This document shows positions 4,231 through 5,106 of a stretch of 13,470 nucleotides of DNA, piece by piece; the first letter of the stretch is position 1, and the number at the start of each line of letters is the position of its first letter. The position numbers were made by a program, and so were the translations under genes. The notes below the pieces were generated by a model. That model was given only the letters and a program-made list of their open reading frames with translations. It searched no databases and was not told where the DNA came from. This DNA comes from Escherichia coli. Lineage in GTDB: Bacteria > Pseudomonadota > Gammaproteobacteria > Enterobacterales > Enterobacteriaceae. Location: NCBI RefSeq assembly GCF_003334315.1, contig NZ_QOWR01000082.1. One strand, 5' to 3'.

Positions 4231-4418
4231 GCCGGATGCGGCGTGAACGCCTTATCCGTCCTACCGTTCAGGCACAAGTTTGTAGGCATGATAAGACGCG
4301 CCAGCGTCGCATCAGGCATCTGCGCATAACTGCCGGATGCGGCATAAACGCCTTATCCGGCCTACCGATCCGGCACAAGTTTGTAGGCATGATAAGACGC
4401 GCTAGCGTCGCATCAGGC
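4231..4418. repeat. BIME: four REP (repetitive extragenic palindrome) units in alternating orientation
   Basis: gccggatgcggcgtgaacgccttatccgtcctac (4231-4264), tgtaggcatgataagacgcgccagcgtcgcatcaggc (4281-4317), gccggatgcggcataaacgccttatccggcctac (4332-4365), tgtaggcatgataagacgcgctagcgtcgcatcaggc (4382-4418). Confidence 0.85.
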
Positions 4419-4430
4419 ATCTGCGCACAA

Positions 4431-4928
4431 TTATGAAATGATACGCTCCCCGGCACTAAAATCCGTTACGTCCCCCGCCCAATCGATGGGATATAACCCT
4501 CGCGCGACATCGCGATGGAACGTTGAGAATGGCCAATCACTCACTTGCTTTACCCAACCATGCTTTACTGGATTTATATAAATATAATCAACATGATGCC
4601 TATAATCTTTGGTATTGCGGATGGCGTGCTCCCAAAAACGTGGTTGCCAGATATTTTTCAATCCACAAGCATGGGTAAATTGCTTTTTAATTTCCCGCCA
4701 GCGCGAGGAAAAATCATCATCGCCTTCAGGTAATGTCCAGATACAGTGCATATGCTCTGGCAAAACGACCCAGGCGTTGATTTCAAAAGGCCTGTCTCGC
4801 TTAACTTTAATAATGGCGTGACGGAGCATCTGGTACTGGGTGGTCAAGAGTTGGCTTCGACGATTGCGTAAATTCACCGTGAAAAACCAGGTTCCCCCCT
4901 TGATGTAATAACGACGATATTCAGACAT
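4431..4928 (-). CDS. rayT: RayT (YafM), REP-associated tyrosine transposase of the HuH / IS200-IS605 TnpA-like family, 165 aa
   Basis: The 165-aa ORF has the HuH motif (PEHMHCIW) and a C-terminal tyrosine region (YRHHVDYIYINPVKHGW); ATG at 4928..4926; REP clusters lie on both sides. Confidence 0.92.
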   Translation of the reverse strand: MSEYRRYYIKGGTWFFTVNLRNRRSQLLTTQYQMLRHAIIKVKRDRPFEINAWVVLPEHMHCIWTLPEGDDDFSSRWREIKKQFTHACGLKNIWQPRFWEHAIRNTKDYRHHVDYIYINPVKHGWVKQVSDWPFSTFHRDVARGLYPIDWAGDVTDFSAGERIIS

Positions 4929-5022
4929 GGCGACTCCTTTTTCTCAACGGTAAGAAGAAAAGGAAAGGTCGGCAATGAGGTGATGGAATAACAGGAAAGC
5001 GGCTCGCAAAAACGCACAGATT

Positions 5023-5106
5023 TGTAGGCATGATAAGACGCGTCAGCGTCGCATCAGGCATCTGCGCACAACCGCCGGATGCGGCGTAAACGCCTTATCC
5101 GGCCTA
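5023..5106. repeat. REP pair (BIME) on the other flank of rayT
   Basis: tgtaggcatgataagacgcgtcagcgtcgcatcaggc (5023-5059) and gccggatgcggcgtaaacgccttatccggcctac (5074-5106); the yafL stop codon at 5104-5106 lies inside the second unit. Confidence 0.85.

Follow-up and report, generated by a model that had tools for sequence, protein, structure and literature searches.

The 13,470-nucleotide (nt) stretch of Escherichia coli DNA analysed here (assembly GCF_003334315.1, contig NZ_QOWR01000082.1; hereafter the window) carries rayT, also known as yafM or tnpA_REP, a transposase gene that is bracketed on both sides by clusters of repetitive extragenic palindromic (REP) sequences. This locus is the E. 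coli REPtron, whose sequence, biochemistry and crystal structure have been in the literature for more than ten years (Nunvar 2010, Ton-Hoang 2012, Messing 2012). We consider it very probable that the REPtron is a single-copy, chromosomally fixed descendant of an IS200/IS605-type element whose product, RayT, binds and cuts REP sequences and would play a part in vivo in the fate of bacterial interspersed mosaic elements (BIMEs). The system is of interest as the best-studied domesticated prokaryotic transposase and because the several hundred REP/BIME repeats that structure E. coli intergenic regions presumably stem from it. The window is another allele of this known locus and adds nothing new to it; only some junction details, given below, are mildly new, and they leave the picture unchanged.

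The rayT gene occupies positions 4431-4928 on the minus strand, and RefSeq places it between yafL and an lfhA pseudogene. Its open reading frame encodes 165 amino acids, all of which are identical to PDB entry 4ER8 (TnpArep), and the product scores 179 bits (E = 4.6e-53) on NCBIfam NF047646, the equivalog model for REP-associated tyrosine transposases (RAYTs), where the cut-off is 80. A Pfam scan returned a sub-threshold match to Y1_Tnp (PF01797; E = 0.082, 13.5 bits, residues 20-68), a low score that is expected because RayT belongs to a divergent clade; the NCBIfam and PDB matches settle the identity of the protein, and its structural relationship to the IS200/IS605 transposases is published. 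The HUH motif is present as H59-M60-H61, together with the catalytic Y115 and residues N119, H123 and E161. In the published structure N119, H123 and E161 are metal ligands, and E161 lies within an autoinhibitory C-terminal tail (PMC3479197). In RAYTs the single catalytic tyrosine sits on helix alpha-D, and the C-terminal extension with E161 is specific to them. Judged by its motifs and family-model score, RayT is a Y1 HUH nuclease of the RAYT/TnpA_REP kind. A 95-nt leader (4929-5023, minus strand) separates the start codon from the nearest REP sequences and contains a ribosome-binding site, with the Shine-Dalgarno sequence AAGGAG 7 nt upstream of the ATG. A promoter and terminator scan of 4150-5250 gave nothing that exceeded the shuffled background, and no convincing rayT promoter was seen in the leader.

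The REP units were located by running the head pattern GTAGGCNKGATAAG over the window with up to two mismatches and comparing the result with 200 shuffles. Ten matches were found against 0.31 expected, and none of the shuffles reached ten. The match at 12209-12222 is without GTAG and was discarded as a REP unit; the nine that are real all have the GTAG head. Units are given here at class-consensus length and were drawn from the head-anchored (GTAG) listing and from alignments. A fuzzy regular-expression classifier missed some units and called some Y units Z1 with five errors, and it was not relied upon. On the 3' side of rayT lies an array of four units at 4231-4418, namely Y at 4231-4264 (minus), Z2 at 4282-4317 (plus), Y at 4332-4365 (minus) and Z2 at 4383-4418 (plus). 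On the 5' side is a single BIME at 5024-5107, in which Z2 at 5024-5059 (plus) and Y at 5074-5107 (minus) stand tail to tail across a 14-nt linker; read along the rayT coding strand, this is a Y REP followed by an inverted Z2 REP (iREP). A third cluster, situated between the gmhA (lpcA) stop codon and the yafJ start, is found at 8302-8436 and comprises a decayed Y at 8302-8335 (minus), Z2 at 8353-8388 (plus) and Y at 8403-8436 (minus). Orientation of Y and Z2 alternates throughout, with linkers of 17 nt head to head and 14 nt tail to tail and a period of 101 bp, and a 133-nt repeat (4233-4365 against 8304-8436) is 89% identical with its linkers included. The units closest to rayT are those at 5024 (plus) and 4418 (plus), and each has an inverted Y partner, so that cognate REPs lie on both sides of the gene. 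A first-pass annotation of this DNA had drawn rayT as an HUH tyrosine transposase gene between a four-unit and a two-unit cluster in alternating orientations, and this holds to within 1 nt, the two-unit cluster moving from 5023-5106 to 5024-5107. It had also noted a REP unit overlapping the yafL stop codon, which is borne out below, and a third cluster of the same REP family 3.2 kb away, which stands with its start at 8302, not 8303.

By class alignment the arrays are Y and Z2 REPs of the BIME-2 type. BIME-1 elements combine Z1 and Y around a long L linker with an IHF site and occur in single copy; the arrays of the window do not have this make-up, as their Z units are long ones of class Z2, with linkers of 14-17 nt. 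The sequences flanking the gene agree letter for letter with those given for E. coli yafM (PMC2817692). Just beyond the 3' array, at 4203-4230 on the plus strand, alignment reveals GTAA followed by GTATCCAGCA and the linker-like GGTGCACAAC, and this is probably the relic of a fifth, Z-type REP unit with its interior deleted. Strains Eco-15 and PM06121 have GTAG or ATAG and then GCATCCGGCA at the same site, and Nissle has a complete Z2 unit there, with the lfhA stop codon inside its ATAG head.

Each unit was also folded as single-stranded DNA and its z-score recorded. All six units flanking rayT, as well as the Z2 at 8353, adopt one common imperfect hairpin (-9 to -12.2 kcal/mol, z -2.7 to -4.0) composed of a free 5' GTAG, a lower stem, a 2x2 internal loop of AA/GC, an upper stem and a tetraloop. 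Unit 8403-8436 folds more weakly (-7.1 kcal/mol, z -1.0), and the decayed unit 8302-8335 has lost the expected hairpin (-3.7 kcal/mol, z +0.2). The imperfect palindrome of 30-40 nt with its two-base stem mismatch, the AA/GC loop, is thus found in eight of the nine units.

These features are the ones on which the published biochemistry of RayT depends. The gene has been described as delimited by Y and Z2 units with a BIME-2 on either side (Nunvar et al. 2010, PMC2817692), and in many genera a RAYT gene always has its own cognate REPs on either side and co-varies with them (PMC2817692). Ton-Hoang et al. 2012 gave the REPtron its name; of 110 genomes, 74 had it, with yafL and fhiA as its neighbours, and there was one BIME 5' of the gene and a varying number 3' of it (PMC3333891). 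In that study the BIMEs of this very locus served as RayT substrates and were bound, cleaved and recombined in vitro (PMC3333891). RayT binds REP solely as a single-stranded hairpin and requires both GTAG and the stem mismatch (PMC3333891, PMC3479197). It cleaves at C|T, where the bar marks the cut, in the neighbouring inverted REP (TGCC|TGAT or GGCC|TACA), in linkers or hundreds of nt away; it forms a covalent 5'-phosphotyrosine intermediate and transfers strands in vitro (PMC3333891). In the crystal structure the enzyme is monomeric and its active site is blocked by its own C-terminal tail; the REP crystallised with it is Y unit 5074-5107, the one overlapping the end of yafL, in its K-12 version (PMC3479197). 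In the window this unit differs from the K-12 version by 1 nt (GTAGGAC to GTAGGCC), a change that improves stem pairing. All six flanking units have the GTAG head and the AA/GC-loop hairpin, with consensus C|T sites on the correct strands; in the 5' BIME these sites are GGCC|TACA at 5101-5108 (plus) and TGCC|TGAT at 5053-5060 (minus). The first-pass annotation had said that RayT is thought to recognise and cleave its flanking REPs, which understates the case, as binding, cleavage and strand transfer have been shown in vitro (PMC3333891). The checks it proposed also came out in its favour. Every unit has the conserved tetranucleotide and, save for the decayed one, folds into the expected hairpin; the flanking Y and Z2 units are of the class that RayT binds (PMC3333891), as are those of the third cluster; and the comparison of repeat number between strains, described below, reproduces published results.

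How the system may work can be outlined from these data. In vitro, RayT binds a single-stranded REP hairpin by reading the free 5' GTAG and the 2-nt AA/GC stem mismatch, and then cuts the single strand at a C|T that lies in the adjacent inverted REP or in the linkers. The cut leaves a 5'-phosphotyrosine bond, and the enzyme can rejoin strands. Since Y and Z2 units face in alternate directions, one binding hairpin and one cleavable inverted copy are present on either strand of a BIME, and both strands are therefore substrates. The C-terminal tail, through E161, occupies the active site and keeps activity low. Working in trans wherever a replication fork or transcription bubble exposes single-stranded DNA, RayT might in this way create and diversify BIME-2 arrays genome-wide and change their copy number, including that of its own variable 3' array. 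Mobilisation and amplification of BIMEs by RayT in vivo is what we infer from this scheme, and several points weigh against it. In vivo activity of E. coli RayT has not been demonstrated in the literature, and the enzyme is autoinhibited in its crystal structure (PMC3479197). REP number differs only slightly between strains with and without rayT (Ton-Hoang et al., PMC3333891), and in O157:H7 rayT is a W99* pseudogene, yet the BIMEs are kept. Loss or gain of a 101-bp tandem unit is also explained by slippage or by RecA recombination between direct repeats, and it therefore needs no dedicated enzyme. Finally, a mobilome-sequencing preprint reports neither circular BIME DNA nor circular rayT DNA.

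Comparison across the population supports the view that rayT is a resident gene. It was found in 3,575 of 5,426 complete genomes (66%), with a median of one copy and a maximum of two per genome, and every rayT place inspected adjoins yafL. The second copies that were sampled lie on plasmid records of 214-242 kb from laboratory strains, XL1-Blue and K-12 C3026 among them; the plasmids are probably F-primes that include this part of the chromosome rather than products of transposition. On the evidence of its genomic distribution, a median of one copy that stands beside yafL wherever inspected, rayT is domesticated and not mobile. The repeats around it behave differently on the two sides: the 3' array gains or loses whole BIME units from strain to strain, whereas the 5' BIME stays the same. 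The yafL-rayT intergenic region, which holds the 5' BIME, measures 175-176 nt in all eight strains compared, and the rayT-lfhA region ranges from 115 to 317 nt in the seven strains that retain lfhA, with two, four or six units. Z1 takes the place of Z2 at the rayT-lfhA site in PM06121, TB06052 and N1024. For the yafJ-gmhA site, 5,084 genomes retain at least 80% of the query. A single hybrid Y unit stands there in O157:H7 and strain 4621, which are short of one Z2+Y unit through a deletion of exactly 101 bp between direct Y repeats. An unrelated G+C-rich palindromic element, CCCTCTCCCTGAAAGAGAGAGGGAG, replaces the BIME in strain SCU-102, and elements similar to it occupy the yafL-lfhA gap in Pseudocitrobacter genomes that are without rayT.

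Two kinds of REPtron loss have been reported, replacement by hicAB, mostly in clade B1, and precise deletion that keeps the BIMEs, in clade B2 (PMC3333891), and alleles of both kinds were recovered here. In Nissle 1917, where rayT is absent, six REP units are left after its precise loss (positions 1205-1486 of the compared locus, L004); three Z2 heads are mutated there (ATAG, GTCG and GTCG), and the Y units retain GTAG. These mutated heads are not tied to the loss of rayT, because Eco-15, which has the gene, also has GTCG and ATAG heads. The O157:H7 strain N8B7-2 (locus L005, 1433-1930) has a rayT pseudogene with a premature stop at codon 99 and two REP units on its 3' side. In strains with hicAB, a third toxin-antitoxin pair besides the two of the window stands at the rayT site. 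Homology of the hicAB allele with the window resumes exactly at T5105 (CC|TACAAAAT in the window, ATT|TACAAAAT in the hicAB allele, at about 1990-2000 of locus L003). The break, C5104|T5105, falls on the CC|TAC site that RayT cuts in vitro, within CTAC, and also within the yafL stop codon. On the other side of the REPtron, a REP head or its relic likewise provides the lfhA stop. It might be asked whether the outer edges of the REPtron are in vivo footprints of RayT chemistry; if RayT-catalysed strand transfer did make these junctions, no natural product of the enzyme would have been identified before them. We regard this as improbable. The right junction speaks for RayT only weakly, because it also coincides with the end of yafL coding constraint, and the opposite, left junction, in the last lfhA codons, has no CT.

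The allele in the window can be placed more closely. Over a 1.4-kb query (4000-5400), identity is 100% with strain CP53 and 97.9% with K-12, and the window as a whole is E. coli chromosome. Against K-12, 4025-4847, which takes in the 3' BIME array and most of rayT, has zero differences over 823 bp, whereas 4848-5107, with the 5' end of rayT, its leader and the 5' BIME, has 24 differences (about 9%); the leader (4929-5023) thus falls in the most divergent segment. The lfhA and yafL flanks (3001-4024 and 4848-5905) differ from K-12 by about 3-5%. This distribution of differences reads as a recombination mosaic centred on the REPtron. A contig scan with the 3' end of yafL yielded five informative loci from Escherichia and Pseudocitrobacter; matches in Pedobacter, Neolewinella and a Clostridiales metagenome-assembled genome were chance hits and were ignored. 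The yafL-BIME-rayT arrangement is also present in E. albertii, Escherichia sp. E1V33 and Pseudocitrobacter faecalis, where RayT is 92.7-93.9% identical and YafL and LfhA are 94.6-98.4% identical, so RayT is slightly less conserved than its neighbours. Faster evolution of RAYTs has been reported (PMC2817692), with vertical inheritance in the literature, and the lower conservation of RayT fits both. In E. albertii two BIMEs, four units in all, separate yafL from rayT. P. faecalis has its Y head mutated to GTAA, which makes the yafL stop codon TAA, and two other Pseudocitrobacter genomes, without rayT, keep GTAGGACGG or GTAGGGCGG at the yafL stop.

The REP units of the window are also intimately associated with gene ends. 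Translation of yafL stops at a TAG (5106-5104, minus strand) that makes up all but the first base of the GTAG head (5107-5104) of Y unit 5074-5107. The compared alleles that carry or retain the flanking REP (K-12, O157:H7, N1024 and Nissle) have this TAG, and the hicAB allele reads TAA there. A REP head likewise provides the stop of the lfhA pseudogene, in this case that of the probable relic at 4203-4230 (GTAA here; GTAG or ATAG in Eco-15, PM06121 and Nissle), so that both genes bordering the REPtron end in a REP head. The distance from stop codon to REP is 0 nt for yafL, whose stop lies inside the head, 7 nt for gmhA (to a Y head) and about 11 nt for rayT (to a Z2 tail); effects of REPs on translation are cited for those within 15 nt of a stop codon. 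Folded as RNA, the three tail-to-tail Y/Z2 pairs each give one long hairpin (-41.9 to -47.1 kcal/mol, z -3.1 to -6.1), the 5' BIME being a single long hairpin of -47 kcal/mol (z -5.3). The Rfam family naRNA4 (RF02564) matches all three on the minus strand, at 5027-5104, 4285-4362 and 8356-8433, with 78, 77 and 74.1 bits against a gathering score of 59.5; in practice this family acts as a generic detector of BIME-2.

Such observations could be taken to mean that the REPs are mainly RNA-level elements of 3' untranslated regions (UTRs), serving as mRNA 3'-end stabilisers, transcription attenuators or translation dampers, and that the adjacency of rayT is an inherited relic with no present relation of enzyme and substrate. 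Three co-oriented genes, yafL, gmhA and rayT, do end at or near a REP, the paired units form very stable RNA hairpins that match naRNA4, a 2026 preprint argues that REPs are local 3'-UTR regulators, and BIMEs persist where rayT is deleted or a pseudogene. What a purely RNA-level role leaves unexplained is why RAYT genes in many genera always come with co-varying cognate REPs (PMC2817692), and why RayT specifically binds and cuts these very units (PMC3333891). We therefore judge it quite improbable as a replacement for the enzyme-substrate reading, with which it is compatible. Transcribed REP hairpins may well act locally as 3'-UTR elements for yafL, rayT and gmhA, as a second and non-exclusive layer beside the action of RayT on DNA.

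The layout of a Y1 HUH gene between subterminal hairpins, together with the weak Y1_Tnp match, is also what an active, autonomous insertion sequence (IS) of the IS200/IS605 type would present if REP, rayT and REP moved as a whole. The hairpins on the two sides are, however, inverted pairs with no distinct left and right ends, circular rayT DNA went undetected in the mobilome-sequencing preprint, and RayT is a monomer whereas the IS transposases are obligate dimers. Above all, rayT never exceeds two places per genome, stands beside yafL wherever inspected and has its sampled plasmid copies in laboratory strains; because it is a single, fixed copy, an active IS is effectively refuted, and we accord it only the slightest probability. 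A still weaker case can be made for chance juxtaposition, on the ground that REPs are too common in E. coli intergenic regions for two clusters to matter. Matches to REP sequences are indeed very frequent, since REP-containing queries find a median of at least 29 to 38 matching places per genome (at least 36 for the 1.4-kb query), and 355 REP elements are annotated in K-12. Against this, more than 3,500 genomes conserve the arrangement, as do further species and genera; RAYT genes in general have it (PMC2817692), and the flanking units are biochemically validated substrates (PMC3333891). Conservation and biochemistry together exclude chance, to which we give practically no weight.

Around the REPtron, the gene order by RefSeq annotation of the matching record is yafN, dinB, lafU, the lfhA pseudogene, rayT, yafL, dinJ-yafQ, dpaA, yafJ, lpcA/gmhA and fadE. 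The conserved upstream neighbour of rayT, yafL (5104-5847, minus), encodes a C40/NlpC-P60 peptidase by annotation and family matches. The other conserved neighbour is the lfhA (fhiA) pseudogene (2489-4207, plus), which is convergent with rayT and corresponds to an N-terminally truncated FlhA homologue; its match to TIGR01398 begins at profile position 114 of 678. It overlaps lafU (1738-2523, minus) by 35 nt, which we take to be something like the deletion scar of the lateral-flagella (Flag-2) cluster, as in K-12-like strains. The window also holds two type II toxin-antitoxin pairs (267-560 and 6063-6604), yafN, whose partner yafO runs off the edge, and dinJ-yafQ; Nissle, E. albertii and Escherichia sp. 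E1V33 have no dinJ-yafQ between yafL and dpaA.

Among known systems the closest is the REPtron of K-12 MG1655, which has the same locus and gene order (yafL, BIME, rayT, BIMEs, lfhA/fhiA), an identical RayT, and the same REP classes and numbers (a single Y/Z2 BIME 5' of the gene, two 3' of it); the difference is allelic only. The TnpA transposases of the IS200/IS605 family (IS608, ISDra2) share with RayT the HUH motif and single catalytic tyrosine, strictly single-stranded substrates, recognition of an imperfect subterminal hairpin with a 5' tetranucleotide, and a 5'-phosphotyrosine intermediate. RayT differs in being a monomer with an autoinhibitory tail and in using a minimal C|T site on both strands and at a distance, and it is single-copy, immobile and vertically inherited. 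The REPIN-RAYT system of Pseudomonas (Bertels and Rainey) likewise has a single-copy RAYT gene with cognate REPs, whose inverted doublets fold as one long hairpin. The three tail-to-tail pairs of the window are REPINs in this sense, being two inverted REPs that pair into one long hairpin. The Pseudomonas system belongs to another RAYT group or clade, E. coli RayT being placed in Group 2, and has other REP sequences, and in E. coli the two halves are of different classes (Y and Z2) and stand in tandem arrays. Lastly, REP325/naRNA4 (RF02564) is resembled by every Y+Z2 pair here, at 74-78 bits; that RNA, characterised as a processed product of about 77 nt that binds HU and disputed in its own nucleoid role, is defined at the yjdM-yjdN locus, and its likeness to the pairs of the window is one of covariance-model scores.

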